Origin: a virus
Reading direction: 5' to 3' (one strand)
DNA: 64,000 nt
Virus record (IMG/VR): IMGVR_UViG_3300035681_000001
Span: 1 to 64,000 of that record
The position numbers and the translations under genes were made by a program. Under the pieces are notes generated by a model that saw only the letters and a list, made by a program, of their open reading frames with translations, ran no database searches and was not told the DNA's origin. Positions 7,333 through 28,854 of this stretch are shown here, piece by piece. Position 1 is the first letter of the stretch. Every line of letters begins with the position of its first letter.

Positions 7333-7668
7333 ATGCCAAATATCTTTGAGACTCGAAATAACAGAATCGACGAAGAAGATTTCACCGACGAACCGGTACA
7401 GTCTACCTTTGATGGTGAACGACAAGTCACCTTGCAATATGGAACGGAAAAAGTTGCAGTAGACGTTACTAGCCCTAGTTACATGGGTAAAAACCTAGGT
7501 CAGATTGCTGCTATGCGAGCTGACGAACTAGGCTTTAGTCGTGAGGCTACGCGTTTGAACTATCGTCTGGCAGGCAGCTACGTAGAATCTACATTTATCC
7601 CTAAACCAGGCCAAGTCTTTGTGCTCAGTACCAGCGCTGACACTAAAGGCGACCCTAAAGCTCAGTAA
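7333..7668 (+). CDS. prokaryotic ubiquitin-like protein (beta-grasp) with C-terminal TKG and a 5-aa propeptide
   Basis: An acidic N-terminal arm is followed by a Ubl-like pattern (VTLQYG...LGQIAAMRADELG...NYRLAG...PKPGQVFVL). It ends STSADTKG-DPKAQ, and xTKG is the typical terminus of Prok-Ub/PRTRC-C Ubls. Confidence 0.7.
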   Translation: MPNIFETRNNRIDEEDFTDEPVQSTFDGERQVTLQYGTEKVAVDVTSPSYMGKNLGQIAAMRADELGFSREATRLNYRLAGSYVESTFIPKPGQVFVLSTSADTKGDPKAQ

Positions 7669-7684
7669 AAACTAAGGGCATACG

Positions 7685-7710
7685 TAGCACTTTACGTGAG
7701 TAAAGTGCTA
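7685..7710 (+). promoter_or_regulatory. perfect 11-bp hairpin with GNRA loop, overlapping a candidate extended -10 (TGCTATTGT, 7706-7714)
   Basis: TAGCACTTTAC-GTGA-GTAAAGTGCTA lies between the Ubl and sigma genes. Confidence 0.5.
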
Positions 7711-7734
7711 TTGTATGTCTATTCGTTTAGTGTT

Positions 7735-9618: not shown

Positions 9619-9631
9619 GTAGTGAGGTTGT

Positions 9632-9952
9632 ATGTACGATCATCCACTAGCTACTTACGAGTCTGAAGAAGACGGTATCACTGAGTGTAATGCTTGGGGG
9701 TATGTATCCGGGCTAACTCACTCTTATTTTGAGAACCAGGATTCTGCTGCTGGTGGGGTTATTAAAGAATATTTAAGTTTATGTGGCGCACCAGCACCAT
9801 ATTGCCGAGCTCTGATTCGCTCGTACAAAAAGTTTAAAAACACTGCAATACTAAGAGAAATACAATGTTTAGCAGCTACAGCCTTAGAACAAGAAGACGA
9901 AAATCTTGAAGACTTAGAAGTAGGTCCGCAAAATCCATACAACCCGCAATAA
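9632..9952 (+). CDS. hypothetical protein
   Basis: 106-aa acidic ORF in the plus-strand array. Confidence 0.65.
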   Translation: MYDHPLATYESEEDGITECNAWGYVSGLTHSYFENQDSAAGGVIKEYLSLCGAPAPYCRALIRSYKKFKNTAILREIQCLAATALEQEDENLEDLEVGPQNPYNPQ

Positions 9953-10011
9953 GTGTTAAAGGCTACCTTAATACAGATAGACTGGTGAGGTAGACCACCT
10001 GCGGTAATAAA

Positions 10012-10266
10012 ATGACTGTAGATCCTCAAGATATACCCACCCCTGGAGGGTGGAAATACCTTGTTTATGGCATTGGAATTATCGTGGGGTCCACCGCACT
10101 AATGGGACTATTTTCGTTTGCTTGGCAGGTTTCTTTGCAACTTAACTCCTCATCCCAAACACTCAGTGAACTCAAAAAAGACTATGAGGCTAATAAAATA
10201 GAGACTAACACCCGTCTTCGAGATTTAGAAACCAATCGGTACTCAACTAAAGAGGGTACAAATTAA
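10012..10266 (+). CDS. single-TM plus coiled-coil membrane protein (holin-like candidate)
   Basis: A hydrophobic segment (LVYGIGIIVGSTALMGLFSFAW) is followed by a heptad pattern. Confidence 0.65.
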   Translation: MTVDPQDIPTPGGWKYLVYGIGIIVGSTALMGLFSFAWQVSLQLNSSSQTLSELKKDYEANKIETNTRLRDLETNRYSTKEGTN

Positions 10267-10271
10267 ATAGC

Positions 10272-10299
10272 AAGTCATGCTACGTAAGTAGCATGACTT
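10272..10299. terminator. perfect 12-bp hairpin between convergent genes
   Basis: AAGTCATGCTAC-GTAA-GTAGCATGACTT lies between the stop codons of convergent ORFs. Confidence 0.6.
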
Positions 10300-10314
10300 A
10301 AGCCCTCAGTAATT

Positions 10315-10764
10315 TTAACTTTCTTCTAAATCAGGCAGCTGATAGGTGTCCGCCAGGCCATTAGCTGCCAGCAACCCCCCGATCTCGGCCCAGTGGGCTG
10401 CGGTTAGGTTGGTGGCTGCAACGGCTACGTCTGTCAGCGACTGCTGCAGGGCGGCGACATTAGCAAAGCCCAGCTTTGCATCGGTTAGGTTGGCAATTAG
10501 CTCCAGGTTGGCCGTCATCAGCTGCGGCGAGGCTGCTGTTTGAGTTTTAATTGTTTGATAGGCGGCAGTTGTTATCAATCCGTTGTAGAACGCTCGATAG
10601 CGAGCGCCGGAATCTGTGATGCGCGGGCCGGTAGTCCACGCCTGGCGCATCATCCCATCTTCGCCGCGAACGGGGTTGAGGGGGATGAGGACTTCCGTTT
10701 CGGGGTCGTACTCGGGGGGAGTGGTGCGGAAGATGTGAATAGCGGGCGCAGGGAAGGTGTTCAT
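10315..10764 (-). CDS. tail fibre-associated (chaperone-like) protein
   Basis: PPEYDPETEVL...P...DG...QAW motif typical of genes downstream of tail fibres. GC-rich. Confidence 0.65.
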   Translation of the reverse strand: MNTFPAPAIHIFRTTPPEYDPETEVLIPLNPVRGEDGMMRQAWTTGPRITDSGARYRAFYNGLITTAAYQTIKTQTAASPQLMTANLELIANLTDAKLGFANVAALQQSLTDVAVAATNLTAAHWAEIGGLLAANGLADTYQLPDLEES

Positions 10765-13700
10765 TAGGTGAAGTAGCGATTGGTGGTCATTGATCCAGTC
10801 ACTGTAGTTGCTGTTGTCACATCGACACCCCTATAGAACGCTTGAACTACCAGGTTAAGGGGGTTGTCCGAAGAGTTGGTGTAAGAAACTTGGGACTGGC
10901 CCGCTGCGTAGGTGAGGGTTGCGTTGCTAGTCAACTCTGTCCCGCTGGTGGCCATTTGCCATACGCTGTCAGTGTAGGAAGCATCGCGCATGTATTTAGT
11001 GCCTGTAAAATACAATACTCCAATGGGGCCGGATGTGGTTGCGTCTACGTTTCCAAAGGTGCCCGCCATTCCGTAGTGTTTGTTGGTATTAGTATAACCA
11101 AAATGCCAACTAGAATAGCCTCCAGTGCGTACACTAGAACCTTGATTAAGTAGCGCAACAAGGTTGTTAAGTGATGCGCCACGGCTGCCGTCAGTCGCGG
11201 CACGATTTGACATAAGGCCATAGTTACCGTTGTCGTCAAGAATATGGATACAGTTAGTGTCAAAATTGCGATCAATAGATCCGTTTGAGCTCATGTTAGC
11301 ACCGGCATAGGCGGTAAAGAACACGCCTACATCCAAACCCCTACCTTGGCCGTAGCTTCCAACGTAGGTCTGCGTATTTTTGGTGCCGTAATTACTATCT
11401 GCAATTATCGAAACACCTTTTGCTACTGCCTTTGGCAAGTTTGTAAGCCTTGAATTGCCGAGGAAATATATGCCGCCAGAGTAAATATCTACATGACCAT
11501 TTACCGAAATAACGGCTCCAGGGCCACCACCGCCGCCCAGACTTCCCGCGCCGGTGCCTTTTGCCCCCAGTATTATATCGCGTAAGTAAAAAGACCCTTC
11601 GCTTACAAAGATATTTGAACCGCTGTAAAATCCATACAGTGTCAAACCTGTTGGCACAACGGCGTCGATGTAGTCATCCAGTATACTTTGAATTGTAGCC
11701 GAGTCAGATCTATACGGGGCTAGGTCGCCGAAAAGGAATGATGGATAATTAGCCGTGTCCCTAATGGTAGAAAGCAGCGATGCCCAACCGACTCCTTGCG
11801 TAATTCCGCCATACAAGAATGTAAGCGGGACAGGGTTTGCGTTAAAAATTACATAAGGATTACTTTGGAGCTGAGATAGTCCAGTGGCAAAAAGGGGTAT
11901 TACAAAAGGACCGCGAGCATCGTGTAGTGCTTTGACATCAGTAGTGGGTTTTGTGGCGGCTGTTGTATAGCTAGCCACAACATTAGTGGCGGGAAATCTA
12001 GCTGTTGCTCCGACGACCTCGGCGATGTGGCGGAATGCGGGAGGCCCTGCCCAATACGGCCCATTGGCGAGCTGGTATCTGACAGTCTCAAACTGGGTGA
12101 AAACTTCGTTTGCATAGGCGACGGCAGCCCTAAATGTAACTGCAGTCGCTCCCGTCAGAGGTGGAGCATCGAATACTTCTGTGGTTGACCTAGCTGGGTT
12201 GAGCGTCAGCGTAGCCGAAGTCCCGTCAAAGTTAAAAGTCTGTCCTGCTGCTGTTGCGCTATCAGGCACAACATAGAGAGTGGTAATTCCGGTTTTGCGG
12301 GTAAGCACTCCTGCGTTTCGCGCCCAGTAGTTCAAGCCTTTAAGACTTACAATTTCAGGCGAGTTGTCCAAACTTGAGTTTAGCTCTGCGTCATTTGCGC
12401 CGCTCAGAGTATTGCTAGAACGCAGTGCAGCAGCATTGGCTAGCCTAACCGTCCCTAGGCTTGTAGTCTTGCCGGCACTGGAGCTTGGGAATAGCAAGCT
12501 AGCTAAAGAGCTTAGGTTCCATACTCCAGAGCCAGTTAATCCATTAATTGAGATATTGGAAAAACTCTCTTGCTGGGTATTTTCCGTTCCAGCCTGGTCG
12601 CCAGCCAACACTGTTTCGCCTGTTTCAGTATCAGTAAGGCCTCTATTTGTTACAACTTGCCCGTTTTCGTTGACACCATTTACTATTACTCGCCCGCCAC
12701 CGCCATTGGTAAAATACAGCGAAAATAGGTTGGACGCTGACATTGGCTTCTGCGCTGCCGGCAAAGCAGTGGAGTAATTGCCATGGCCAGCTCCTTGGTC
12801 GTAGGTGAAGTTTGAAAGCGTGATCGTGGTCGGCCGACGGAACTCCACTGCCCAACGAGCGAGGCCAGACGCGGCGCCACCAGATGGCGCTGAGGGAAAA
12901 TCCGCTGTGCTAGATGGATTGAGTCTACGAGTAGCTGCGGTGCGTGGTATAAGTGCTGTCCAAACAGCAGCATCCGAAAAACCAAGGGCCCGCAGCAGTG
13001 CGTACAGACCTAGTAAGTCGGTACCAGTGCGATATTGATCCCGGACAGGACCAGCATTATTAAAAATTGTAGACCAGTTTATGCCGCAGCTTGTGGTTAT
13101 GTCGTTTGGGTCGGTATCGGTATCAAAAACAATTTGAGGCGCTTCATTGGTATTAGGCTCTTCCGGATTATAAGCTTCTGGCATATGCACGTAAGCTTCG
13201 TCCCAATCGGCTGATGGAGGAGTTGATGCGATGGCATAATTGTTCCTAGTAGCCTTAAAGTGTTTGTTAAGAGCCTTAACTACTACACCCTTTCGATAGA
13301 ACGTGCCAACTGTGTACGTGGTACTGGGGCAGCTGCGCCGTAGCGTTACTCGTGCACCAAAGTCTGTTTTACTAGTGCTGGTAACAGCTAGTACTTCTTC
13401 CCCATCTGGGATCAAATTTCGCGTAATACCTCCACCCAATACGTTTAGCGATGTTTGTAAAATTGCTGATCTACTTGGCGTGCGACTACCAATTGATGTT
13501 GTCAATTCCAGAGATGCTGAACGTTCTGCCAAAGTGCGGCTATCTACTACACGGCGAATGTAAACAGATTTCCCGATAGCGTTGCTAATACCGAAGCTGC
13601 TGGGCACAGCTGCATTGGTTCCGCTTTGGCTCAATGCCGCTGTGATGTTGATTCGAGCAGGGGTGCCAGGCGTCCAGGCTGTAGTAGTAAGCAAAGCCCG

Positions 13701-15902
13701 CCAATCGTCGCCTTCAGGGTTTTCAACCCATACGTAAGTACCGCCCGGCAAAGAATAACCGTCTGCGGCCACTAACTGAGGGATTGTACCTGTGCTATCA
13801 GCGGCCAAAGCCTGCAACAGGGTGATGTTAGATGCGCTATGGCTTGCCACCACCCCCAACGTGATTCGCCTGATTGCAGGTGTTTTTTCGGATGGGTGAA
13901 GTGGGACTCTAATGCCATCTATCAACCAGCCTTTGTCCAGCGGAACAGCGGTTCGGCCGTAGCCTGTGGCAAGCGCAGCGCAACTGCCAAATGTAAAATT
14001 TCCGTTCGATGAGACAATTTCCCCCCCCAGGTCTGCTCGCGCCCTTGCAGTGTGACCAACACCAAAAACAGAAACCTCGCTACAGAAAGCATCTCTGATT
14101 ACCAGTAGATGGCAGTGAGCACGTTGGGGCTTGATCCGTCTATTATCAGGGATTGTATCTATATAAGCCTGAAGGCTGGTAGGGGTAATCCAGCTACCAC
14201 CAAAATAAATTTGCAGGCTATTTACGTCTTTTTGGAGGGAAATTCCAGTAAACTGGGCTGTAATTGTAGATTTTAGACCACCTAAGTTGTCTCCATTGAT
14301 GAACAGACCACCCATACCCCACTCACTACGCACGCTGATGCGTTCGGGGTAGGCAGATGCGCCCTGTACTGTATCCCAAGCAGAACTTGGGGTGCCAGTA
14401 AATGCGCCAACTACTTGGTACTCACTTCCTCGTGCTACGCTCAACGCAGCAGAAAGATTAGCTCCAGAGCCCAGTGCGGTATAAGCCTTGGTGTAAAACG
14501 AATTTAGATGTGACTGAGATGGGTAACCTAATGCGTAGAGCAAGTGTAATGATTGATTTTGACCGATAGGATCACGAAAGGTAAAATCAAGCGCATGTAC
14601 GTCGGGTGTCTGATATAAAACACAACGAATATTGCTGTAATCGCTAGCGATATCTGCAGGGGCTGGTGCCCACATTGGTATCAATACGGTCTTACGTAAG
14701 TCTTCACCGTCAAAAGCAGCACCTCGTGGTAAAAGCACCCCTCCAAGGGTATTGTCGTTAAATGCAATTAGCTCCTGCCAAGTAGGAACCTTACCATTAG
14801 TCCAAGTGCTGATAGGAACAGCGCTTGAATGAGATCCTGGGTGGTTGTAAATAAACTGCGGACCTGATGCCATGTGAATAATCACACAGTCACGGTGAGC
14901 CCGAGGATCAGTAAATGTGTACCAGCTTAAGGATGTAATTATGTAAGCTTCTAGTACTGCTCTGTTAAGAGTTTTGAAAGGGGTAATTCTTGTATAACCA
15001 CACTCCAAACGTTGGTTGCGAATACGCTTGAGTTTTTGGGCAATTTTCTCTTCGTCGGTGCCGCTTGACTCAAAGCTATTAAAATCTCCAGTTACAAATG
15101 TGTCTCGGCCAAGAATATCATCAACGTAAAGATGAAACGGAGCCGTAAGCGGATCACTAGGTTCTGCTGAGCCGCCAGCAACATTAACATTGCCTACCAG
15201 TTGACGCAGGGTAGAAGCCATCACTGAGGATTGGACAGCAGTGTTACTAATTTCACCAGCTGCAACAATTACCCACGTAGCGTTAGATGTAGCTCGATAA
15301 TGTACGAAGCCTCTTGTTTTATTAGGAAAAGTATAATTAGCACCGCTTAAAATGTCTACTACAGACAGAGTAAATGCTCCACCAGCTTGCCTTATAATTT
15401 GAAATTCAGTGCCATCTTTTATGCCTGAAGTAGGCAGAGTAATGGTTCTATTTGCAGTCAGCGTTGTATTAAATACCTGTACAAGGTAATCGTTACTGAT
15501 TAGAGTAACATTTACATCACCACGGTTTTGTGTCTGATTAACAGGAATTACTGACTCCCACCCTGTAGGAGTACCATCTGTATTTATCAAGAAAGTTTTA
15601 GTATCAGGTTGCCACCAAAGCTCACCTGTATAGTCTAGTGACTGTCCATTAACTTGGAATTGGTCAGGTCTTACACCTGAATTACCTACATATGCATTGC
15701 CGATACGTATGACTTTATCTGTAGATGAAGTAGTAGCAGTCCTACCTATTCGTAAAAAGAATCCTAATGAAGTACGAATCAAACTGGTGCTAGTAGTACC
15801 TGCTGAACGATGGTTAACTACAGGTTCAGCCCGAGCAAACTCATTTAACTTTGGTACTCGATTAAGAGTACTAGTTTCTTTAACAACAACAATGTCGGAC
15901 AT
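10764..15902 (-). CDS. giant tail fibre-like virion protein (1712 aa)
   Basis: Contains LYVD..LG.D...PFKTLNRA, PRG...G.DLRKT and LKS.ITAQFTGISLQKD motifs typical of cyanophage virion fibre proteins. Paralogue of 16929-23714. Confidence 0.8.
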   Translation of the reverse strand: MSDIVVVKETSTLNRVPKLNEFARAEPVVNHRSAGTTSTSLIRTSLGFFLRIGRTATTSSTDKVIRIGNAYVGNSGVRPDQFQVNGQSLDYTGELWWQPDTKTFLINTDGTPTGWESVIPVNQTQNRGDVNVTLISNDYLVQVFNTTLTANRTITLPTSGIKDGTEFQIIRQAGGAFTLSVVDILSGANYTFPNKTRGFVHYRATSNATWVIVAAGEISNTAVQSSVMASTLRQLVGNVNVAGGSAEPSDPLTAPFHLYVDDILGRDTFVTGDFNSFESSGTDEEKIAQKLKRIRNQRLECGYTRITPFKTLNRAVLEAYIITSLSWYTFTDPRAHRDCVIIHMASGPQFIYNHPGSHSSAVPISTWTNGKVPTWQELIAFNDNTLGGVLLPRGAAFDGEDLRKTVLIPMWAPAPADIASDYSNIRCVLYQTPDVHALDFTFRDPIGQNQSLHLLYALGYPSQSHLNSFYTKAYTALGSGANLSAALSVARGSEYQVVGAFTGTPSSAWDTVQGASAYPERISVRSEWGMGGLFINGDNLGGLKSTITAQFTGISLQKDVNSLQIYFGGSWITPTSLQAYIDTIPDNRRIKPQRAHCHLLVIRDAFCSEVSVFGVGHTARARADLGGEIVSSNGNFTFGSCAALATGYGRTAVPLDKGWLIDGIRVPLHPSEKTPAIRRITLGVVASHSASNITLLQALAADSTGTIPQLVAADGYSLPGGTYVWVENPEGDDWRALLTTTAWTPGTPARINITAALSQSGTNAAVPSSFGISNAIGKSVYIRRVVDSRTLAERSASLELTTSIGSRTPSRSAILQTSLNVLGGGITRNLIPDGEEVLAVTSTSKTDFGARVTLRRSCPSTTYTVGTFYRKGVVVKALNKHFKATRNNYAIASTPPSADWDEAYVHMPEAYNPEEPNTNEAPQIVFDTDTDPNDITTSCGINWSTIFNNAGPVRDQYRTGTDLLGLYALLRALGFSDAAVWTALIPRTAATRRLNPSSTADFPSAPSGGAASGLARWAVEFRRPTTITLSNFTYDQGAGHGNYSTALPAAQKPMSASNLFSLYFTNGGGGRVIVNGVNENGQVVTNRGLTDTETGETVLAGDQAGTENTQQESFSNISINGLTGSGVWNLSSLASLLFPSSSAGKTTSLGTVRLANAAALRSSNTLSGANDAELNSSLDNSPEIVSLKGLNYWARNAGVLTRKTGITTLYVVPDSATAAGQTFNFDGTSATLTLNPARSTTEVFDAPPLTGATAVTFRAAVAYANEVFTQFETVRYQLANGPYWAGPPAFRHIAEVVGATARFPATNVVASYTTAATKPTTDVKALHDARGPFVIPLFATGLSQLQSNPYVIFNANPVPLTFLYGGITQGVGWASLLSTIRDTANYPSFLFGDLAPYRSDSATIQSILDDYIDAVVPTGLTLYGFYSGSNIFVSEGSFYLRDIILGAKGTGAGSLGGGGGPGAVISVNGHVDIYSGGIYFLGNSRLTNLPKAVAKGVSIIADSNYGTKNTQTYVGSYGQGRGLDVGVFFTAYAGANMSSNGSIDRNFDTNCIHILDDNGNYGLMSNRAATDGSRGASLNNLVALLNQGSSVRTGGYSSWHFGYTNTNKHYGMAGTFGNVDATTSGPIGVLYFTGTKYMRDASYTDSVWQMATSGTELTSNATLTYAAGQSQVSYTNSSDNPLNLVVQAFYRGVDVTTATTVTGSMTTNRYFT

Positions 15903-15922
15903 ACAACCTCAAAGTTAATGAA

Positions 15923-16603
15923 TTAAAAATCAGGGGCCGAAGGCCAGTTTAAATATTCAGGACTGTTTACATAAGTCTTTAAACTGGCTAGATTGGTCTT
16001 TGTGGACACTTCGGTCCGTTTGTTGCTAGCTTCTGTGCGAACAGACTCTCTCCAATTACTCCAATCAGTAGGTATGTCTACGTTAATTTCTGATTTTCTA
16101 GTAACCATCCAGTCAGAAGGCTCTAGTAAATTATAAGCCTTAGAACTCACCGCTGCAATCAAATACTTTTTTGCTGCACTCAAAGTCGTAGGTAAGGGAA
16201 AAGCAGACCAAACCCAATTCTCATTAAACCAGTACATTTTAGTGCCTAAAATTACCTGAGCCGGAGGTGCTAATTCAGTAGTATCTGCAGGCTGGGACCA
16301 ACCTAAAGTGTTAACTACTACTGCTTGACCTAAATGCAAGGTTTCAGTGGGTGTAGTAACATAATAAACTTTAGGGTTTTCATAAGCATAGATTATTTCC
16401 TGAGCTTGGTCTAGTTCTGTTTGCCAAGCATCTAAGCTACTAATAGATTCAGGCTGGGCGTTAACATAGTGTACTAGCCCCCTACCTAAAGTATCTGAGA
16501 ACTCTACTAGATCTATAGCAGGATTCATACCACTAAGGTCAACACCTCTAGCTGTGCCTTGTGGTAAGACTATTAGGTTTTCTCTAGGTCTGATTTCAGT
16601 CAC
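15923..16603 (-). CDS. tail fibre assembly chaperone-like protein
   Basis: LLEPSDWMVTRKSE....IPTDWSNWRESVR motif, located downstream of a fibre gene. Confidence 0.65.
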   Translation of the reverse strand: MTEIRPRENLIVLPQGTARGVDLSGMNPAIDLVEFSDTLGRGLVHYVNAQPESISSLDAWQTELDQAQEIIYAYENPKVYYVTTPTETLHLGQAVVVNTLGWSQPADTTELAPPAQVILGTKMYWFNENWVWSAFPLPTTLSAAKKYLIAAVSSKAYNLLEPSDWMVTRKSEINVDIPTDWSNWRESVRTEASNKRTEVSTKTNLASLKTYVNSPEYLNWPSAPDF

Positions 16604-16929
16604 TGCAAGTTACCTGGTGCAATTGCTTGTATTTCTACACCTTCTATTGTAGGTTCTTTACCTAAAGCAGTGTTGAATAAAATATGATTGGTCACGTCAG
16701 CCCGTTTTACTGATTCGTTGCGATGACTTTCAACTGCTGCTGCAGTGTGGCGCTGTTGGTTGGAATTTTCTATTAGTAAAGCAGGTAGCCACTTAAAAGA
16801 ACAATCCCATTCATCCACTTGTTTACCAGTATTAGAATCCCAACCTGTAACATGAGTAAAGAAAACACACTTAGTACCTACGCAGTCTTCGCGGATCAGA
16901 GGGCACCAAGTACCTGTCTGTAGTTGCAT
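16600..16929 (-). CDS. small Cys-rich tail fibre-associated protein
   Basis: CPL...C....C.FF...WDC...LP.LLIENS.QQR.T.AAVES.RNE, a conserved phage family found next to fibre genes. Confidence 0.7.
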   Translation of the reverse strand: MQLQTGTWCPLIREDCVGTKCVFFTHVTGWDSNTGKQVDEWDCSFKWLPALLIENSNQQRHTAAAVESHRNESVKRADVTNHILFNTALGKEPTIEGVEIQAIAPGNLQ

Positions 16930-19900: not shown

Positions 19901-22900
19901 CACCGTTAGCCCAATAAGCTGCGTTGTTAGTAAATACAGGTCTAGTTGCAGCGGGAAATTCAGACCAATCTTGAATGCTTACTAAATTAGTAAAAACTTT
20001 CAGTAACTTGGCGGAATACAAAGCTAGTTCAGCGGTACTTAAAGGTGCAGCTGCTAAAACAGCATGGTGACTAGAACTACTAGTAGTACCAAAACAAACA
20101 CGCTCTACTAAAGTCTCAGCCGAATATCTTAAAATACTACTTTTGAAAGCTTGACTAGTAGGTACGTACAACGGGCTAAAAACAGTAGCTGCAGGGTCCT
20201 TTACGTAAATGTGAACTTGAGGGCCCAATACCACACCACCGTAGACACCACTGCCTACACCAGTAGGATTGAATAAATCATAAGAACCAGCGGCTGCCTC
20301 AAACTCTAAGTTCTTAGCACTTACAGCTAAAGTATTAACTGCTCCAGCACTAGTAGCACCAGCTTGGTTCTTTACGTTATAGGTACCAGGCTCTACGTAA
20401 ATGGTTACGGGCCCTAGCAACGAACTAATCAAGTTAGCCTGTAGCGCCGCTCGCTCTAAAGTCTTAAAGGGGCTAGTACTAGAAGTACCTTTGTTGCTTA
20501 CTAGATCACTAGCATCAGGGTGCCTAGCATTCAAATAAACACTAGTAGCACTAACCACACTAGACTGAGCTGCTAACAGCCCTTTAGCTGTGTAAGGGCT
20601 AAGAGCTACTTTGGTATCCAAACCAGCAATAGCTTGAGCTACTGTAGCTAGCTGTATAAAACCCGCTCGCTCAGTAGTGGAATACAACTTCCACTCACTA
20701 GAAGCGAGAATAGGAGTCTCAAAGTCAGTAAGAGAGTTAAACGCTAAACGAGCAGACCGGAGGTCCAAAGTAGCGTTGGGGAAAAGCAGCAAGCTTTCAG
20801 TGATCGTTAGACGCTTGAAGACCTTAGTATCAGAAGTAGTATTACTGGTTAAGTCAGTTTGTTTACCTGTCTTTAAGTCAATGACTTGCTGACCAATAAT
20901 GAAGTTACCATCTTGGTCCATTCCAGTATTGTAGACCCGACCACCAAAAGACTCTTTTTTGATCCGGGCTATAGATTGCTGAAAAGTAAAGACCTTGTCT
21001 TGGAACAACGGTAACGCAGAAGAATAATTCAAGTAACCCTGCCATTCCCAAGTGTGCCCAGCACACCTGATAGTAGAAGGGCGGTGTAGGTTGGTACGTA
21101 TAGTAGTAGGTACGTTTACTGTTCTGGTACTAGCTTGTAGTAAAGCTACCCTATCAGACAACGGCAACCCGAGTTCAGACAACAGCGTGTCTACGGCTTT
21201 ATAGGTAGCCGAAGTAGTAGGGTTAGCTACAGGGTTGTTAATATCAATTTCTGGATAAAGTGTAGACAATGACTCGTTAGTGGCTCCAGCCAACATCAAA
21301 GCTACGTAATAAGTACCTGTAGGCAAGTCAGCCCCGTTGAAGTCAGTAGTCTTTACATCTGCTACAAATAACGGTGTAGTAAGCTGCAATCCCATCAATT
21401 GCTGGTTAAGCCTTAATACAAAGTTTTCTACAGGTCGCCGCTTGCTGGAATCACCTAGACCTTCAAGCTTAAGCCACAGAATACGGTCGTCTGATTGTCT
21501 TTGATCAGGGTTGCGTTTAATCAGTATAGGAAACCCCTCAACCAAAGTACGGTTGTTGTAGATACCGTTGTTGGTCGTTGAAGTATTAAAAAACCACCCG
21601 TTGGAATCCTGAGAATAAAAAGGAGCTGTGTCTACCAAACGAGCTGTATATTCAGTACCGTCTACACCAGTAACGTAAAGTAGTTCCCCAGGTTGGTAAG
21701 TAAAAGGAGCTACACGATCTTCACTAGGTTGGGCATCTACGTAAAGCTTTGCAGGAGTATTGATGTCTGCGTTGGCAGGTGTCTTTAGTTTGTAGCTAAG
21801 AATCGGAATATTGAAAACAGTCGGGTCTATAGGTTTAGGTAAGATAATCGTATTGATAAAAGAGCCCGAGTCTTGCGGCAGAGCCGTAGCCGCAAAACCC
21901 TTAGCTACTAAGGATAGGTCGCCAAAGTTAGAGCAGCTGTTAGTAATAGAAAGCTCACCGCCGTCTTCTGCTTCGTAATGAACAGCAGAACAAATCACAA
22001 AACAACTAACGATCTGGATGTAACCACCGTTAACTGCTCGGAAAGCCCGGTGTCTCCATTCTGGTTTGTACCTTTTGTTTCCTGGCAGTGTGGTGTCTGT
22101 AACAAAAGCACGTGGATCAGCTTGCAAGCTTACGTTAGTAAACTGAGCAGTAACCATAGACTTAAGGCCACTGACCTTAGCGCCGTCTACCAACAAGCCA
22201 TTAAGGCCAAACCGGGAACGAACCGAACAATTAAAAACATAAGGTGATGCTGAAACAGTAGTATCAACAGCTAAGAAACCAGTAGCATCTAAAGCCTGAT
22301 TACTGGTAACCGGCGCTACTATCTCAGTTTCTGGTATCGAAGCTTGAAAGTCTGCTAGTACCACGTTAGGGTTACGCCGCAGCCCTAACACTTGGTATAC
22401 CTTAGAGTAATAACTAGAATCCGAACCGGTTAACTCATCAGCGGTAGCAAATTCAGCACACCCACAAAGGTGGTGACTACTGTAGTTAAACGCGTTGTCA
22501 GTAAAAGTAAAACCATAAAGGTACGAACCACCAGTAAGCTTAAAAATACTGGTACGACCGGTACCAAAACATTCTGGGTCGGCCAACCAATCATTAAAGT
22601 TCCCTACGTACCTAGGGCGAAGCTTGGTCTTCCTAAGATCTAAAGCTACTATCGAAACACCCCTAGGTGCAACCACCCCACCTTTAATGGGATTAAAGAC
22701 AGAATAGTTAGGGTAACTAACAGTATCTCCTACAGCCCAAACGCCTTTCATTCGACGAACTGTAATACGTGCGTTGTCAACCGCAACAACTATTGCTGAA
22801 CCACCAGAAGAACTAAAAACTTGTTGGCGTGGGTACAAACCTTCAGCCCAAGCGTTGGTAACACTCAACACACCAGTAGTTAAGTTGATAGCTGTAACTA

Positions 22901-23714
22901 ACCCACTTAGGAGCTGTGGGTTAATAGGGCCAGTATCAGTAGCCGTTAGTCGAGGTAAAGCTGAATAAGATACTACCCCTGGACGGTTATCTAAATGATA
23001 ATCTCCTGAGTGAATGTAAATAGTATCCTGGTCATACAAGTCATTGTTAGCTCCAGCTTGATAAGACCTTAAAGCAGAAGCTATTAACGCTCGTTCTGGG
23101 GTAAGAAAAGGTCTACTAGGATCTAGACCGTCATTTTCAACCGAATCATCACCTATAGTTTGGTCTACATGAATCTCATTTGACTCAGTACGACGCGTAA
23201 TAAAACCAGACTCTTCTGCCCAATTAGCCAACCCAGCCGGGTTAATGGCAGTAGTTTCTGAAACACCATCTTGAATTTCTTGTAAAGTTGCTAACCTCAC
23301 CAAACCAGCTTGGGTCTGAGTAGCATCTACTGGACTAACCCTAAACCAAGAGTCACCATTATTAACAAAAAAAGCACCGTCTGTTTTACGTAACCACAGC
23401 TGCCCTATTTGATTTAGCTTGGCAGCGTTATTACTAAAAGTAATTCCTGGAGCAGTAGTTTCTGCTGCATCCGTAGTAACATATGCTGGACCTACACGTA
23501 CTACTTGATCAGCTACACTCTCATTAGACTCAGTACCAACTCGTAAGAACAAGCCTACCGAGCTAGCAATCAAATTAGCATTTGTAGAACCGTAATTAAC
23601 TGATACTTCACCTAAGTAAAGATCTTCAGGTGTATTAGTACTAGGTACCCGATGAGGTACACCACTAGATCGAGATACGTGACGCAGAATATCAAAATCC
23701 CGAGGGGTGCTCAT
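16929..23714 (-). CDS. giant tail fibre-like virion protein (2261 aa)
   Basis: Contains gp34-like repeats (AGLVRLATLQE, AGFIQLATVAQ) and two copies of the PF.TLERA module. The C-terminus is tail-collar-like (ATAPLGWVQ...DDYALRVVSG...AVRYIDMILCTK). Confidence 0.85.
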   Translation of the reverse strand: MSTPRDFDILRHVSRSSGVPHRVPSTNTPEDLYLGEVSVNYGSTNANLIASSVGLFLRVGTESNESVADQVVRVGPAYVTTDAAETTAPGITFSNNAAKLNQIGQLWLRKTDGAFFVNNGDSWFRVSPVDATQTQAGLVRLATLQEIQDGVSETTAINPAGLANWAEESGFITRRTESNEIHVDQTIGDDSVENDGLDPSRPFLTPERALIASALRSYQAGANNDLYDQDTIYIHSGDYHLDNRPGVVSYSALPRLTATDTGPINPQLLSGLVTAINLTTGVLSVTNAWAEGLYPRQQVFSSSGGSAIVVAVDNARITVRRMKGVWAVGDTVSYPNYSVFNPIKGGVVAPRGVSIVALDLRKTKLRPRYVGNFNDWLADPECFGTGRTSIFKLTGGSYLYGFTFTDNAFNYSSHHLCGCAEFATADELTGSDSSYYSKVYQVLGLRRNPNVVLADFQASIPETEIVAPVTSNQALDATGFLAVDTTVSASPYVFNCSVRSRFGLNGLLVDGAKVSGLKSMVTAQFTNVSLQADPRAFVTDTTLPGNKRYKPEWRHRAFRAVNGGYIQIVSCFVICSAVHYEAEDGGELSITNSCSNFGDLSLVAKGFAATALPQDSGSFINTIILPKPIDPTVFNIPILSYKLKTPANADINTPAKLYVDAQPSEDRVAPFTYQPGELLYVTGVDGTEYTARLVDTAPFYSQDSNGWFFNTSTTNNGIYNNRTLVEGFPILIKRNPDQRQSDDRILWLKLEGLGDSSKRRPVENFVLRLNQQLMGLQLTTPLFVADVKTTDFNGADLPTGTYYVALMLAGATNESLSTLYPEIDINNPVANPTTSATYKAVDTLLSELGLPLSDRVALLQASTRTVNVPTTIRTNLHRPSTIRCAGHTWEWQGYLNYSSALPLFQDKVFTFQQSIARIKKESFGGRVYNTGMDQDGNFIIGQQVIDLKTGKQTDLTSNTTSDTKVFKRLTITESLLLFPNATLDLRSARLAFNSLTDFETPILASSEWKLYSTTERAGFIQLATVAQAIAGLDTKVALSPYTAKGLLAAQSSVVSATSVYLNARHPDASDLVSNKGTSSTSPFKTLERAALQANLISSLLGPVTIYVEPGTYNVKNQAGATSAGAVNTLAVSAKNLEFEAAAGSYDLFNPTGVGSGVYGGVVLGPQVHIYVKDPAATVFSPLYVPTSQAFKSSILRYSAETLVERVCFGTTSSSSHHAVLAAAPLSTAELALYSAKLLKVFTNLVSIQDWSEFPAATRPVFTNNAAYWANGAKYGYQTPGVLSSTDPTPKLPTEFRDCRLRSETGLCGILADGLLMEGEASVIVRNCHAQSTQILDIAFSSGTGSSVSAQYKADYRHYFLHATNGAEIRAHDNLVEGFADEFWSSGGGVITGAGNRSQYGAISLKATGYAATAKLLQTKGKVTALVPPKGVLRGLAKRVDFTTTPGITNQGSTAIPYGENFTGNDPSVITAYDAPLTGFATDQVVNISFNRINLAKTLGTVSGTLGGAQTAANQTANFRRLYLGAPIIESAVPEYIESPGTGYEKRWLVLDGLYLLGKAGGAAERVWSCVYTYPSPKANYLAVPFYVLLREPLSDDTSGNNPKRQYYVWEPTGTTDPTTGQPLGLIYLRVAKAATEGTNDWNDVANGRNLLYRLFVKAQSGSFEFLERTMRDWDSSALVPDLFGAVYVQRKVDFRPGSTLATGQTVDANDLLWRLELTIPKTVAQAEPPERFSVIQTPISNSDTLETFWVYDVETLTEYQPGNQDGVYYLTVLLGGVLPPSGGTTGYKQNLNYLFPELDLDSPNWNPDASLSIYDSIAGVVTPSSSSITPSIFPGCECAASTYDRISQYSTTREAVERFVSAFGLLYSGQSVAPNLGTPYFPSDAADTNDSALAQLFNRYGKDLPPSQRKVYVSAAPVEFRQPSKVCLTAHFWDRTGYASGNYSVAINETVANVLSAQQLYNSRATEQNGGVVRVTGLDTTGNYHIGGNVYVVGSTTEITLAAPRLMFSAEGRLIDWSDSNSRVFNTPKQRPELLNAFRLENLVATGHLITANLVVAGGLVDLTQASEVLLKTARVLGTLQAEVVEADSGKFRHLEVLGVVFANKFVGLGVFEPGVRLVFHNATAPLGWVQETNVDDYALRVVSGAGGGAGGSVAFTAAFTNRTVPLVDHNHGITDPSHSHSFYSLRNDEGVSSGGSTVQDGMDFGPTAFSGGGNQVPGGPYSVTGSGTGVTVNSASVSQTTGNTMNFAVRYIDMILCTKT

Positions 23715-23806: not shown

Positions 23807-24193
23807 ATGGACGGTGCAGAATGCCTAACTCTTTCAGACTACGTCAACAAGAAAAAGGTCAGGCAACTACATCGACAAGCTATTTTCAGAGCTTTTGACC
23901 ATAAGTGCGCTTATTGTGGCAGTCCAGCTCAAAGCTTAGATCACGTTAAACCACGTCACAAAGGAGGTCAAAACCTTAGTTCTAACTTAGTACCTGCTTG
24001 TTTAGAGTGTAATCAAACCAAAGGTAGCTCTGACTTATGGGACTTCTACCACAAAGGTCAGGCTTTTTATTCAGCTAGTAGAGCTGAATTTTTAAAACAG
24101 TGGGTTTCAGGTGAAATCTTAGCGTTAAGGGCACTAAGTGTTGAAGAACTCGGCAAAGACAACGTGCACATATTCTTAGTAGGTTTCAACTAA
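23807..24193 (+). CDS. HNH endonuclease
   Basis: CAYCG....LDHVKPR.KGG.N..SNLVPAC..CN..KG. Confidence 0.9.
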   Translation: MDGAECLTLSDYVNKKKVRQLHRQAIFRAFDHKCAYCGSPAQSLDHVKPRHKGGQNLSSNLVPACLECNQTKGSSDLWDFYHKGQAFYSASRAEFLKQWVSGEILALRALSVEELGKDNVHIFLVGFN

Positions 24194-24230: not shown

Positions 24231-26977
24231 ATGTCTGAAGGTGCTGAAGCGCCAACCTTAGAACCTTTTGTAAGAGGTAAAAAGGGCTGCCTTAAACTCG
24301 TTACTTCTCCATATTGGGGTAGTTGGTATAAACAAGTAGACGATCCTAAAGGTAAAGACGTAGACGCAAAAGAACTGCTAGAGCAATTTTGGATTAAAGA
24401 GTCGTTTGATAAAGTACCACTACAGCAGCTACGTAGGGTGGTTACCTTTTATAGACGTTATGTGTCTAACGTAGCAGCCAACTCGACAGTAGATACTAAT
24501 GAAGTACAAGTTTTGCTGCTGCGATCAGAAACTGATATTACAGCATGGAAAATCCTAGTTCCTAAACAAATCATTACACCCGGAACAGTCGAAGCAGTAA
24601 CTCATCCGTCTTGTGATTTAGAAACTGGTGAAGATCACTTGGTGTTTCCGCCTGAAGGGTGGGCTCATGCTGGTAGTAGCCACTCCCATAACACTATGGG
24701 TAAAAGATCCTGAAGTCTGAGTAGAATAAGGCTAATTTGTAGTCTTACTTTGCTTACTTACGCAAATCCCCGCGACGTACACGTGCGCCAAAAAGTGGTT
24801 GAACTTTTTAATAAAGGGTTTACACCACAAGAGATTCAACAAGAACTAGGTCTCCGCTACTGGCAACCTGTTTATAACGTGCTTAAAAAAGCTGGAATCT
24901 ACGAAAAGAGATCTACTAGGTACCATCGTAAGTATTTTTTTAACGAAAACTACTTCGATAATATCAATACAGAAGACAAAGCTTATTTCTTTGGTTTTCT
25001 TGCAGCAGATGGATGTATTGATTCTGATGCACAAAGGGTAAAAATAGCCCTTCAAGAAAAGGACTCAGATATCTTGTATAAGATGGTTTCTTACTTAAAC
25101 GCAAACTTTGAGCCAAAGTTTGTAAAACACCATTCTTATAATCAAGTTCATCTGTGTTTAAACTCAAAGGTTTTTAGGCACGCTCTTATACAAAAAGGTA
25201 TGAAACCCAGAAAATCTTTAACCATGAGTGCAGAGTTAACCGACTCAATCCCTGAACACCTAATAAGGCACTTTCTTAGAGGGTACTGTGATGGAGACGG
25301 TAATATATTCCTAGGAAAAAGATATAAGTCTGGGGTTAAATTCTCTGTATCAGTCATAGGGACTAAAGAATTTCTTAAATCGTCTTTTCTTAAGCACTGT
25401 TCTAGTAACTCTCCTCTCTCAAAGTATAACTCTTGTGAGATGTGGTGCTGGAAAACAGCCAAGATAGATCACGTATTTGAGTTCCTTAAATACATCTATC
25501 AAGATGCAACAGTCTACTTAGATCGTAAGTACAAATACGTAGGGGATTACGTAACTTCAGAATGTGCCCATATAAAATCAGGTGAATTGCTGGAAATCTT
25601 CCTGCCTAAGGCAAAAGACAATCAGCAGCCAAGTCTACTTGCTCAAAGTAAGTAGAAAGGTTCAGAGACTATCCCGAAAGGGAGTACGCTCAAGCGAGCG
25701 GAAGCGCCTGAATACCTATAGTTTAACTATAGGTATAAGATATAGTCCCATCCCGCATGACCGCGTTAGAGTCATAATACCGAAAGGGCGGATGTCTGTG
25801 TAGCGAACAGACACGTAAGTAATTGGCATTCTTTTCAGGTAAAGACGACCGAGGCGAACTAACCGTACCGGGCTTGCACTTTGTAATTGGTAGGATTACT
25901 ACTTCTAGCTTTGAGATTAAAGCTTCAATCGTAATGAACCGTATGCGATTTCTAGTACCTCCTGATTGGGTACTAGAAATCGGAGAAATTCCTTATAAAG
26001 TACAAGATTCAATGGTAGGAGTCTTTACTGACTCTATAGCCGTACCCTACGCTGAAAAAGTAGAAACTTACGTTAAGCGAGCTAACGAAGCTGTACCTAA
26101 ACGTACCCCTTTACCTGGTAGTTATGGACCTAGGTGGACTCGTAATAATACAAACCATGCTTATAGCTGGACACCTAAAGGTAAAAGTCCAAACGCACTG
26201 GGAGACTTTTCAGACCTACTAGGAGACGTAAACGAAATTGGTTTGTACTCTAATAAAACCGTACAAATAAACGCGCGGTCTAAACCACTAAGTATGGTTG
26301 TCAAACAGCTTAATTTGCTGTTGGACGGACTTAAGTATCAACACTCTGCAGTAGTCTTTGAAGCTCTGGTAAATAAAGGATTCATCAGTGAGCAAGCTGC
26401 ACTGATAGCTGCAGGTGAAGCTACAGAAGTCGCACAGCAAGCTGAAGTGTGGAGTTTTAAAAAGCCTAGCGGACTAGCAGACCTAGTTGATAACTTCAAT
26501 GAATCAGAAACTGAACCCCCACAAGATCAGTTAGACGCTACCTTTAGTCTTTTAGCTTCGTTGCTAGGTGACTTATACGATGGTTACAACGAATCAGACG
26601 CAGTGTACGGTTTACTCTACACACTAACTCTTATTGATAAGAAAACAGTACAGCTGTATACAATTGAGTATAAAAAAGCACTTAACTGGGGAGTTTGTCT
26701 AGCTAAGCGCCTACCCAGTACGTTTGACGGTGATTGGACAAGCGTAGAAAAACTAGCTGTGGTGCTGAAATCTTTAATAAAAGATGACCACTACCGTAAA
26801 ATAGTTTACGGAATTCTGTTGAACGTAGGGTACCTAGAAGCCGAAAACCTACCAGTTGACAGCACCACGGCTGAACTTTGGCGGCGTAGCGCTGCTGAAT
26901 TTACCGATACCAATACTGATACTGACTTAGGTTTGGCAGCCACTCACTACGAACCTGATTGGACTGATCGTATTTAA
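24231..26977 (+). CDS. JAB/MPN+ metalloprotease (Prok-JAB, PRTRC-A-like) with a long C-terminal extension; join(24231..24701,25826..26977), 540 aa
   Basis: Splicing gives GSSHSHNTMG|AFFSGKDD, a complete HxH...S..D JAB motif, followed by PGLHFVIGRI typical of Prok-JAB. Confidence 0.88.
24702..25825 (+). mobile_element. group I intron (1124 nt) in the JAB gene
   Basis: The 5' exon ends in U (GGT) and the intron ends in G. Core elements: P AATTGCTGGAAA 25585-25596, Q GACAATCAGCAGCCAAG 25617-25633, R GGTTCAGAGACTAT 25659-25672, S AAGATATAGTCC 25737-25748. Confidence 0.92.
24750..25655 (+). CDS. intron-encoded LAGLIDADG homing endonuclease with N-terminal HTH
   Basis: YFFGFLAADGCI and HFLRGYCDGDGNI motifs. 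The 3' end overlaps the ribozyme core. Confidence 0.9.
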   Translation: MLTYANPRDVHVRQKVVELFNKGFTPQEIQQELGLRYWQPVYNVLKKAGIYEKRSTRYHRKYFFNENYFDNINTEDKAYFFGFLAADGCIDSDAQRVKIALQEKDSDILYKMVSYLNANFEPKFVKHHSYNQVHLCLNSKVFRHALIQKGMKPRKSLTMSAELTDSIPEHLIRHFLRGYCDGDGNIFLGKRYKSGVKFSVSVIGTKEFLKSSFLKHCSSNSPLSKYNSCEMWCWKTAKIDHVFEFLKYIYQDATVYLDRKYKYVGDYVTSECAHIKSGELLEIFLPKAKDNQQPSLLAQSK

Positions 26978-28066
26978 ATGAGCACTTTCACTCTAGCTAC
27001 AGAGCAACCTACACCTACCAGAAAGACTATTGCCAGAGGTCGCCATAAATTTATTGCTTTCCCTGGCGAAACCCAAAAGGCACTGTTTTCATACACACTT
27101 GGTGGTTCATCACACCAATGCTTAGACGTTAATGGTAGTACTAGAAGAATACCACAAAATTATCATTCTGTAAGAATTTTCACTATCACAGCACCTAGAA
27201 CTGCTCTGGTACCTTTACCAGAATCTGGAGATCAAAAGAAATGGTTAAATATTTTTACTGAAAGAACTTGCAAAAACTGCTCGCACTTAGCGCAACCAGC
27301 TCTAGCTGTACAGTCTGCTTTTCTAGCAGACCGCAACATAATAAACCTTAAAATAGACGCACTAGAACGAGTAGTAGCTAGGTATCAAACTGGAACTTGT
27401 AAAGGTGTACAAGCACATCAAACAGGTATTTGTCCTGCCTCACACAACATAGCTGAGGGCTTGTCCTCATTGGACACTGCAGTTATGCAAGTTCCTGCTT
27501 TGTGTCTAATGTCTACTTATACTAGTCAAACAGACCTACTAGCCTTTAGCGAAAGGGAGTACAACCTTTTTGCTTATCGAGAAACTGATCAAAAAGTAGG
27601 CCCTTACTGCCCAGCTAATGTGCACTCATCAGGAAAAATCTGTTGGGGTAGAGAAATGCAAAACAGCAACGTTAAACCTCGCACACCTAAAGAAGCGTTG
27701 TCTATGTACTGGGGGTCTGGTTTTAACCAAGACTTAGCGTCTCAACGGGGCTCAAGTCTAAAAACTACTTTAGAAAACTATCGACAAACTGAAACTAGTT
27801 ACGGAAAACTACAAAATTATTTGCACGAGCATAAATACGGTACCAGCCAACCGTGTGTCGGCATCTATTTAAGCTCTTACAGAAACTTGTTGCAAAAAGT
27901 TCCTGCTGAGCACCACATAAAATTAGGAGAAGAGACAATGGTACTAGCTTGGGTCTTATACGCTGAACCAGAAAGGTACGTACTAGATTGCAACGGCTTT
28001 CTGGTAGAAATGAGTAAATTAAATGGCTCCTCCACAGTAAACATCCATAACCTTACTGAATCCTGA
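26978..28066 (+). CDS. prokaryotic E2 family D-like (PRTRC-B-like) Ubl-conjugating enzyme
   Basis: PANVHSSGKICWG...YWGSGFNQDL matches the Prok-E2_D consensus (PNVxxxGxICWG...FxxSxFNxDL). The putative catalytic Cys is residue 222 (27641-27643). Confidence 0.82.
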   Translation: MSTFTLATEQPTPTRKTIARGRHKFIAFPGETQKALFSYTLGGSSHQCLDVNGSTRRIPQNYHSVRIFTITAPRTALVPLPESGDQKKWLNIFTERTCKNCSHLAQPALAVQSAFLADRNIINLKIDALERVVARYQTGTCKGVQAHQTGICPASHNIAEGLSSLDTAVMQVPALCLMSTYTSQTDLLAFSEREYNLFAYRETDQKVGPYCPANVHSSGKICWGREMQNSNVKPRTPKEALSMYWGSGFNQDLASQRGSSLKTTLENYRQTETSYGKLQNYLHEHKYGTSQPCVGIYLSSYRNLLQKVPAEHHIKLGEETMVLAWVLYAEPERYVLDCNGFLVEMSKLNGSSTVNIHNLTES

Positions 28067-28854
28067 TGAAATTCGACCAAGTTCACCTAGTAGGTCTGGG
28101 TGGTACCGGTTCGTACTTAGCTAAACCTCTTACTAGGTTGCTTAAATACCACAACCAAGGTACGACTAACTTACACTTCTGGGATAAAGACCTAGTAGAA
28201 CCACACAACCTGATCCGCCAAGACTTTGGTGCTGAAGCTGTAGACCAAAATAAAGCTGAAATCATGGCCTCAGAACTAAAGTCTATCAACCCTTACATCC
28301 GAGTACACACTGGTTGGTTTGTACCTGATACCCTAAACGAATGGTTGACTCAACAGCCAGCTAACAATTTGTTAATAGTACTGGCTGTTGATAACGACGC
28401 CACGCGTAATGCAATCATCGTAGAACTAGATGCAATGCCCAACCAAGACTTTGTGCTAGTACTGCCAGGTAATGGCTATGACACCGGCAATACTTATTGG
28501 TACGGTAGGCAAGGTAGCGAAACAGCTCCTGTACACCCGTTCGACGTAGCGGATAACTGGGCTTTTCCGCAAGACGGTTTGCCTGGAGATTGTGCAGAAG
28601 AAGCTAAGTCTACACCTCAACTTATAACCAGTAACTTTTCCCAAGCACTATGTTCGTTGGAGATCGTACTAGGGCTATTGAACGACACACCTATGCCATT
28701 CAAAATGGATTACTCGGGTCCTAATTTCAGTATTCGAGCAGAAGGTAAACCTACGTACTTTCCTAGCTTGATTAAACCTGAACCCGTGGTAGTGGCGGCT
28801 CCTGCAGCCCCAGTAGTAGAGCCCGAACTCCCAGTAGTTGACTTGTTCTGTTAA
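28066..28854 (+). CDS. ThiF/E1-like Ubl-activating enzyme (PRTRC ThiF-like)
   Basis: VGLGGTGS, D.D.VE..NL.RQ, NKAE, AVDN..TR and CAEE....PQLITSN motifs. Confidence 0.9.
   Translation: MKFDQVHLVGLGGTGSYLAKPLTRLLKYHNQGTTNLHFWDKDLVEPHNLIRQDFGAEAVDQNKAEIMASELKSINPYIRVHTGWFVPDTLNEWLTQQPANNLLIVLAVDNDATRNAIIVELDAMPNQDFVLVLPGNGYDTGNTYWYGRQGSETAPVHPFDVADNWAFPQDGLPGDCAEEAKSTPQLITSNFSQALCSLEIVLGLLNDTPMPFKMDYSGPNFSIRAEGKPTYFPSLIKPEPVVVAAPAAPVVEPELPVVDLFC

Follow-up and report, generated by a model that had tools for sequence, protein, structure and literature searches.

A putative four-part ubiquitin-like conjugation pathway encoded by a large freshwater phage

Described systems and the phage locus

To our knowledge, the demonstration that bacterial ubiquitin-like conjugation works is recent and comes from type II CBASS (cyclic oligonucleotide-based antiphage signalling system), Bil and Bub, and all of the bacterial cases studied so far are either a host weapon against phages or a plasmid system of unknown role. 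Here, a set of four genes is described from the first 64 kb (64,000 nucleotides (nt); hereafter the window) of IMG/VR record IMGVR_UViG_3300035681_000001, a freshwater phage genome of 189,763 bp that is estimated to be 96% complete. The genes encode a ubiquitin-like protein (Ubl), a JAB/JAMM-type protease, an E2-like protein and a ThiF-type E1, all of which were found where an initial annotation of the sequence had placed them. The reading put forward here, to which a probability of about 0.7 is given, is that they form a working conjugation pathway, with its steps proposed by homology. In a phage that has the whole kit, this chemistry would serve the virus in the conflict between phage and host and, if the reading is true, the set would be the viral equivalent of the conjugation systems that hosts have in Bil and CBASS. 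The four genes, and the elements that lie inside one of them, are as follows.

7333..7668, + strand: Ubl precursor gene, 111 amino acids (open reading frame, ORF, 7333)
24231..24701, + strand: exon 1 of the JAB gene, residues 1-157, with Glu91 and His151-x-His153; ends in HSHNTMG
24702..25825, + strand: group I intron, 1,124 nt; Rfam RF00028, 83.1 bits (cut-off 50); core at 25496-25769
24750-25655, inside the intron: LAGLIDADG homing-endonuclease ORF; LAGLIDADG_3, E = 1.5e-8
25826..26977, + strand: exon 2 of the JAB gene, residues 158-540; starts with AFFSGKDD and holds Ser161 and Asp164 of the HxHx7Sx2D motif
26978..28066, + strand: E2-like gene, 362 amino acids; Prok-E2_D (PF14460), 19.5 bits
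28066..28854, + strand: E1 gene, 262 amino acids, a minimal single adenylation domain; ThiF (PF00899), 53.2 bits (cut-off 28.1)

The nearest named system is the PRTRC cassette, which is carried by plasmids and by integrative and conjugative elements (ICEs) and has the same four kinds of protein on separate genes, including a short single-domain ThiF-type E1 and a small Ubl. Within the set TIGR03734-03742, the relevant families are TIGR03735 (PRTRC_A, the JAB), TIGR03737 (PRTRC_B, which is Prok-E2_D) and TIGR03736 (PRTRC_ThiF), and these are the best named-family matches of the phage enzymes: the JAB with PRTRC_A, the E2 of a related viral locus (L011) with PRTRC_B, and the E1 with PRTRC_ThiF. 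However, the scores are far under the cut-offs of these families (18-21 bits for the JAB orthologues against 101.8 for PRTRC_A; 17 against 131 for PRTRC_B; 40 against 145 for PRTRC_ThiF), and the phage Ubl has no match to PRTRC_C or Prok_Ub. The set resides on a large phage, its JAB and E2 are two to three times longer, and the Ubl gene is detached from the enzyme genes in the clade to which the window belongs (L002-L006 and G001; the window clade). Another difference from the PRTRC cassette is that no ParB-type Pfam family was found among the called genes of the window region, L002-L007 and L011. As far as we know, no function of the PRTRC cassette has been established by experiment. The phage Ubl, E2 and JAB are undescribed families that are distantly PRTRC-like.

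Like the phage set, the Bil system (BilABCD) combines a free Ubl bearing a C-terminal Gly with a separate E2 and its (in the phage, candidate) catalytic Cys, a JAB and an E1, and it has no E3; two Bil Ubl structures (8tyx_A and 8tyz_B) match the model of the phage Ubl. The two differ in the architecture of the E1. BilD carries an inactive and an active adenylation domain in tandem and a mobile Cys domain (PMC11601596), whereas the phage E1 is a single domain of 262 amino acids. The phage set is, moreover, encoded by the virus and not by the host, and no PADLOC model matches its E2, JAB or Ubl. With type II CBASS, the likeness lies in the nucleotide-binding half of the window E1, which matches the PADLOC models of CBASS E1-E2 proteins (E down to 6e-11), and in a JAB that would trim and reverse in the manner of Cap3. 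In contrast to Cap2, an E2-E1 fusion that acts on a CD-NTase, the phage E2 and E1 are encoded by separate genes in all lineages; the phage substrate would be a dedicated beta-grasp protein, and there is no CD-NTase in the conserved set.

Among phages, the survey of Iyer et al. (2006) contained only the TAPI/TAPK pair of lambda, and its E1/E2/JAB operons were situated on ICEs and plasmids (PMC1779556). TAPI of phages Lambda and T1 is a Ubl of the beta-grasp type with a C-terminal Gly, and its partner TAPK combines a JAB peptidase with an NlpC/P60 domain (PMC1779556). Unlike the set described here, this pair comes with no E1 or E2, sits inside the operon for tail assembly and is not regarded as conjugating.

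Two cultured phages hold related modules. In Vibrio phage D69 (OZ195729, L027), adjacent Prok-E2_D, Prok-JAB and ThiF-like genes, all annotated as hypothetical, are found at about 173.5-176.3 kb, and in Bacillus phage vB_BceM_WH1 (LC597490, L026), Prok-JAB and ThiF genes are adjacent (gp215-gp216), of which only gp216 has been named, as a member of the ThiF family. Both modules are only distantly related to the window set (E1 identity of 25-32%). No member of the window Ubl family was detectable in the D69 or WH1 genomes and no tag gene was identified in them; a small ORF upstream of the E2 gene in D69 was considered as a Ubl and rejected, as it looks helical and has no terminal Gly. A tblastn search with the window E2 and Ubl against 50,697 cultured phage records gave no match. 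As far as the literature was searched, the D69 and WH1 modules are unstudied, and a full-text search, which is incomplete for subscription papers, returned no paper on a phage-encoded Ubl/E1/E2/JAB system. Through these cultured Vibrio and Bacillus relatives, bench tests of parts of the system may become feasible.

The candidate tag and the three putative enzymes

The product of ORF 7333 begins with an acidic extension (residues 1-30), continues with a beta-grasp core (about residues 31-100) and has a flexible tail, which ends in D103-T-K-G106 and is followed by the propeptide DPKAQ (nt 7651-7665). The N-terminal extension of about 30 residues is conserved, with the pattern MxxxF ... EEDFxDE (nt 7333-7425). 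An AlphaFold2 (AF2) model of the Ubl has a floppy tail and a core of bb-a-bb-b topology (b, strand; a, helix) with a predicted local distance difference test (pLDDT) score of 80-88. When this model was compared with the PDB using Foldseek, NEDD8, ubiquitin, SUMO, ISG15, TtuB and the Bil Ubl 8tyx_A were matched with a probability of 1.0 and a target TM-score of about 0.6, and almost all of the top matches were ubiquitin-fold proteins; MoaD and SAMP1 were matched as well. In a VIA-align comparison, the 50 best rows were without exception of the ubiquitin superfold (50/50), with Z-scores of up to 9.3 and a value of 7.5 for 8tyz_B. The beta-grasp fold that the initial annotation had supposed for ORF 7333 is thus what the model predicts.

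At the level of sequence families, ORF 7333 has no match in Pfam, PHROG or NCBIfam; the same negative result was obtained for 14 members of the Ubl family against Pfam and three members against NCBIfam, and neither Prok_Ub (PF14454) nor PRTRC_C finds a match in the phage's own genome at E <= 10. An exhaustive HMMER scan of 1.84 billion representatives gave 18 matches, 11 of which are small proteins of about 93-153 amino acids that have the acidic N-terminal stretch and the core in common. The remaining matches are weak and fall on MBG_3 and InlB-type repeats, which we take to be beta-grasp repeats. The C-terminus is D[TS/R]KG plus zero to five residues in 13 of the 14 aligned members, and one aligned member, P0010, terminates exactly at the Gly. 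An orthologue outside the 14-member alignment (L024) has a tail of 11 residues.

The JAB gene is interrupted by the group I intron exactly within HxHx7Sx2D, the metal-binding motif of the JAMM active site, and joining of the exons restores it. The intron has a U at the end of the 5' exon and a G at its own end. The initial annotation had proposed the junction HSHNTMG-AFFSGKDD, and this holds: besides the match to RF00028, the predicted junction is confirmed by two independent checks at the sequence level. One is given by the orthologues without an intron (L002, L005 and L006; 538-540 amino acids), with which the spliced protein of 540 amino acids is colinear. The other comes from a DNA contig of the lake metagenome run X8, in which position 24700 is joined to 25826 with a single C between them; this is an intronless allele, and its junction is the predicted one with GGT changed to GGC. 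As the intron is a genuine member of group I and its boundaries are precise, expression of the split JAB gene should be possible. The intron is also polymorphic in nature, as the intronless allele was seen in one lake metagenome contig and the intron in other runs.

The JAB domain extends to about residue 215 and is followed by a variable extension of about 320 amino acids. Glu91, His151, His153, Ser161 and Asp164 are invariant in an alignment of five diverged sequences. The nearest clusters in the ESM Atlas are PRTRC protein A/Prok-JAB (0.95), and the Prok-JAB family itself (PF14464) gives 13.7-19 bits in all and 17-19 bits with the JAB orthologues, under its gathering cut-off of 25; a JAB profile matched nothing relevant among the PDB sequences. 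A scan of genome contigs with JAB patterns found no bacterial copy, although such a scan is limited by the patterns and is not proof of absence. One may ask whether the protease is the operative part of the set, acting as a counter-defence deconjugase that strips the marks of a host Bil- or CBASS-type system while the other genes are auxiliary. The JAB is indeed the most conserved component across lineages (41-49% identity against about 25-30% for the E2s), its active-site codons, like other important conserved sites, are a target of mobile elements, and the protease is kept in the related locus L007, where the tag requires no trimming. However, a lone deconjugase would not require a co-inherited tag, E1 and E2, all of which are under purifying selection, and in no phage of the set is the JAB found alone; this explanation is considered quite improbable.

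The E2-like protein contains ANVHSSGKICWG, which includes Cys222, and SGFNQDL. In its core, Asn214 is invariant and Cys222 (PANVHSSGKICWG) is the candidate for the catalytic residue; YWGSGFNxDL comes next. The motif PY..NV[HY]xxGxxCWG ... FNxDL is invariant in all eight of the E2 sequences compared, distant paralogues included, and it is HPN-like in that a catalytic-type Cys follows the Asn after a few residues, with Asn214 and Cys222 themselves invariant in 8/8. Upstream of this motif, the N-terminal region holds four invariant Cys residues (C98, C101, C141 and C152; CxxC...C...C), a module that probably binds zinc, and the C-terminal end is a beta-rich domain. With Prok-E2_D, the cut-off of which is 25 bits, the orthologues P0007 and L010 reach 26.0 and six others 15-23, and in every case the match covers one and the same catalytic region of the profile. 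The window E2 adjoins viral Prok-E2_D clusters in the ESM Atlas (0.94), and hhalign relates it to the E2 of L011 with a probability of 96%. A low-confidence AF2 model shows four strands, a loop with the Cys and a helix, an order that is compatible with the ubiquitin-conjugating (UBC) fold. The putative UBC fold rests on the consistent weak matches to Prok-E2_D and on the invariant NV[HY]xxGxxCWG.

In hidden Markov model searches with the families named by the initial annotation, ThiF was matched above its cut-off, Prok-JAB and, for the window, Prok-E2_D stayed under theirs and Prok_Ub gave no match. The E1 has as invariant residues the nucleotide loop G10-x-G-G-x-G15, Arg51, Lys63, Asp109 and Cys176 (within PGDC), with Arg51 and Asp109 answering to the Arg finger and the Mg-binding Asp of such enzymes. 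Judged by its invariance, Cys176 is the candidate Cys for an E1~Ubl thioester. UBA5, ThiF, UBA6, SAE2 and MoeB are among the PDB matches of the E1 profile, and the NCBIfam models of ThiF, Cap2 and PRTRC_ThiF all score under their cut-offs. The last 35 codons or so encode a tail rich in Pro and Val that ends in DLF, and a short (D/E)LF motif is conserved in the window clade; it may be a docking peptide that replaces the ubiquitin-fold domain missing in comparison with larger E1s.

The resemblance of the E1 to the ThiF/MoeB-type enzymes, which are its nearest relatives in size and sequence, also allows a different chemistry, that of a sulfur-carrier system of the ThiS, MoaD or TtuB type, in which the E1 would form a thiocarboxylate at Gly106 for thiolation and not for tagging. 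The matches of the Ubl model to TtuB, MoaD and SAMP1 fit this, and pairs of JAB and ThiS/MoaD proteins without an E2 are known from sulfur pathways (PMC1779556). Nevertheless, every lineage has inherited, along with the set, an E2-like protein whose Cys is invariant, one of them (L023) in duplicate, and no rhodanese, cysteine desulfurase or TtuA-like sulfurtransferase was found among the Pfam-annotated neighbours, so that a sulfur carrier appears very improbable.

In the proposed conjugation pathway, the JAMM protease, made after self-splicing of the group I intron, would cut DPKAQ from the 111-amino-acid precursor and so expose Gly106. The E1, probably a homodimer like ThiF and MoeB, would adenylate Gly106 and then carry the tag on Cys176, from where it would move to Cys222 of the E2. 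As no E3 is encoded, the choice of the target is assigned to the extra domains of the E2, that is, the N-terminal four-Cys module and the C-terminal beta domain, and the tag would be joined to a lysine. The JAB protease may also reverse the mark, a role that is suggested because the tag of L007 already ends in Gly and yet the protease is kept.

Linkage, inheritance and proposed role

The enzyme genes form an operon on the + strand in the order HNH endonuclease, split JAB/JAMM, E2-like protein and ThiF-type E1. In the window clade and in the more distant L007, the E2 of which is 30% identical to that of the window, the arrangement is the same: the Ubl gene, a sigma-70 gene, one or more fibre genes on the opposite strand, and then HNH-JAB-E2-E1. 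Two further kinds of locus bring the genes together. An IMG/VR virus (L011/L012) has a contiguous Ubl-E2-JAB-E1 cassette with genes for rIIA, deoxynucleoside monophosphate (dNMP) kinase and ThyX nearby, and a phage-like contig of 104 kb (L023) has the order Ubl-E2-JAB-E2-E1. Compared with the window, the L011/L012 and L023 loci show 41% identity in the JAB (E = 4e-67) and 39% in the E1 (E = 1e-52), and their Ubl is clearly homologous as well. All four families were found on every contig that is long enough (the window, L005, L007, G001, G002 and L023), and their joint presence in five diverged phage lineages is not chance. The own genome, of 189.8 kb, has one Ubl, one E2 and one E1. Word-based scans of viral contigs found few relatives.

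The view that ORF 7333 is the cognate tag of this enzyme set is supported, because a beta-grasp fold is predicted for it, its Gly is conserved in front of variable tails, it is contiguous with the enzymes in L011 and L023, and the four genes co-occur. The same observations bear out the earlier claim of a complete set with a distantly encoded tag. It might be argued instead that ORF 7333 is not the substrate, that the enzymes act on the C-terminus of another protein, as in type II CBASS, and that the beta-grasp protein belongs with the sigma gene. In the window clade, L007 and L013, the Ubl gene lies a long way from the enzymes and in every case directly precedes the sigma-70 gene, and CBASS sets of E1-E2 and JAB can work without a Ubl. 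Against this, the Ubl gene is directly contiguous with the enzyme genes in L011/L012 and L023, no sigma-70 gene was found in the L011 sequence (97.6 kb, 66% complete), and the conserved terminal Gly and the variable propeptides would be left unexplained; we regard this alternative as hardly credible.

The four genes are under purifying selection, as estimated from the ratio of nonsynonymous to synonymous substitution rates (dN/dS), which is 0.18 for the JAB, 0.19 for the E2 and 0.11 for the E1 compared with L006, and 0.15 for the Ubl compared with L005. The two E2-like paralogues of L023 (8350-9981 and 11148-12095) flank the JAB gene, and both retain the Asn/Cys motif. L011 has retained the first E2 type only and the window the second only; from this split retention, the ancestral cassette may have had two E2s.

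BLAST searches with the giant protein of L023 and with the proteins encoded upstream of the cassettes in L011 and L023 detected no similarity among these proteins, nor between any of them and the window genome. As these backbones have no detectable likeness to the window genome, the set moves as a module, and it is common to at least three unrelated phage backbones. Such horizontal movement, typical of accessory genes, would suit a defence or exclusion module of the Bil kind, carried by the phage and tagging the structural proteins of co-infecting competitors by the same chemistry. The module is also lacking in the distantly related phage Ma-LMM01, and in L011 it adjoins rIIA. However, within the window clade, where E2 identity falls as low as 30%, it keeps one and the same syntenic position among core genes and is not part of a variable island; the Ubl, E2 and JAB are matched by no PADLOC defence model, and the E1 is without the tandem-domain architecture of BilD. 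A role in exclusion is therefore judged unlikely.

Several observations weigh against a working conjugation pathway. Concerning the enzymes, the E1 has neither a separate Cys domain nor a ubiquitin-fold domain, so that the hand-over of the tag to the E2 is not evident. The window E2 scores under the Pfam cut-off (19.5 against 25 bits), its AF2 model, which was built from eight sequences, has a pLDDT of 42.5 and is unusable, a Foldseek search with this poor model gave noise only, and no E2 was recovered from the PDB sequences with profiles built on the full protein or on its catalytic core. The assignment of the JAB rests on its motif because all of its profile matches are under the cut-offs. 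Concerning the genome, the Ubl gene of the window phage is situated 16.5 kb upstream of the enzymes and adjoins the sigma factor gene, and for these reasons co-regulation is not evident. A scan for promoters and terminators of the operon found fewer promoter-like sites than in shuffled sequences and was uninformative.

If the conjugation pathway does work, its substrates, we think, are proteins of the host or the phage that are tagged inside the infected cell, either ahead of assembly or while it proceeds, and the system is not a structural assembly factor. Action in the infected cell is favoured because the genes are co-oriented with replication and early-type genes, and because the L011 set stands beside rIIA and nucleotide-metabolism genes. 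In the initial annotation, the operon was described as lying between tail-gene blocks. This is true of the window clade but not of two other lineages (L011 among them, with its rIIA and nucleotide-metabolism neighbours), which weakens the supposed link to tail fibres. On a broader view, large lytic-type phages might tag host proteins, for instance those of defence or transcription, or their own, in the course of infection, by means of an undescribed Ubl family and an E3-independent E2 that has target-recognition domains of its own. Whether this would be the first complete virus-encoded cascade of E1, E2, Ubl and deubiquitinase (DUB) in the viruses of prokaryotes is put at even odds together with the tagging itself. 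The small and separable parts (a tag of 106 residues and an E1 of 262 residues) would lend themselves to the study of a minimal E1-E2 transfer that is free of E3, and the system lets one ask what a virus gains from protein tagging.

Genome setting and neighbouring genes

DNA of the window occurs in runs of lake-water metagenomes dated 2020-2025. The relation to Ma-LMM01 is only distant, with 34% identity over a PolA fragment. Ma-LMM01 has no tail-fibre match to the window phage, and it is without any of the four genes; as it is only a distant relative, this absence is little informative. The enzyme operon includes, and is flanked by, the following genes.

10764-15902, - strand: giant tail-fibre gene; PHROG phrog_529, E = 3e-43
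16929-23714, - strand: second giant tail-fibre gene; PHROG phrog_529, E = 7e-187
23807..24193, + strand: HNH endonuclease gene; Pfam HNH, E = 2.4e-11, and PHROG HNH families
28856-29338, - strand: small virion-protein gene on the 3' flank of the operon

The interval 10764..23714 (- strand), with the two fibre genes and two small genes, splits the block of Ubl and sigma-70 from the enzyme operon. Relatives have a single fibre gene in this interval, and the gap between the Ubl and the enzymes is 5-7 kb in them. The HNH gene stands directly 5' of the JAB gene in L002, L005, L006 and L007, all relatives of the window clade. Its dN/dS of 0.07 compared with L006 indicates strong purifying selection, which is unusual for a free-standing homing endonuclease; for this reason, it may be a functional partner of the system or a packaging HNH.

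The sigma-70 gene (7696-9618) has an insertion of 292 amino acids (residues 146-437; nt 8131-9006) between FSTYS and TWWIRQ, in the most conserved stretch of the protein. The insertion begins with CVPLTTEI and finishes with FLTGN, and the next residue is a Thr. The window and L002 carry this insertion; the sigma genes of L005, L007 and L013, which are colinear apart from this, do not. A Pfam search did not flag it, and it looks like an intein with a LAGLIDADG-like remnant. Both insertions, the group I intron within the JAMM motif and the apparent intein of the adjacent sigma factor, mark sites that are conserved and functionally important.

Two tRNA genes are detected by Rfam in the window, at 52778-52846 (+ strand) and 63238-63309 (- strand), and ARAGORN finds the second only (tRNA-Thr, anticodon TGT); the first may be unusual or degenerate. 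Finally, L002 and L003 have a gene of the LAGLIDADG type with a faint Pfam match (18373-19203), just downstream of split DNA polymerase genes, which again points to a heavy load of homing elements in these phages.

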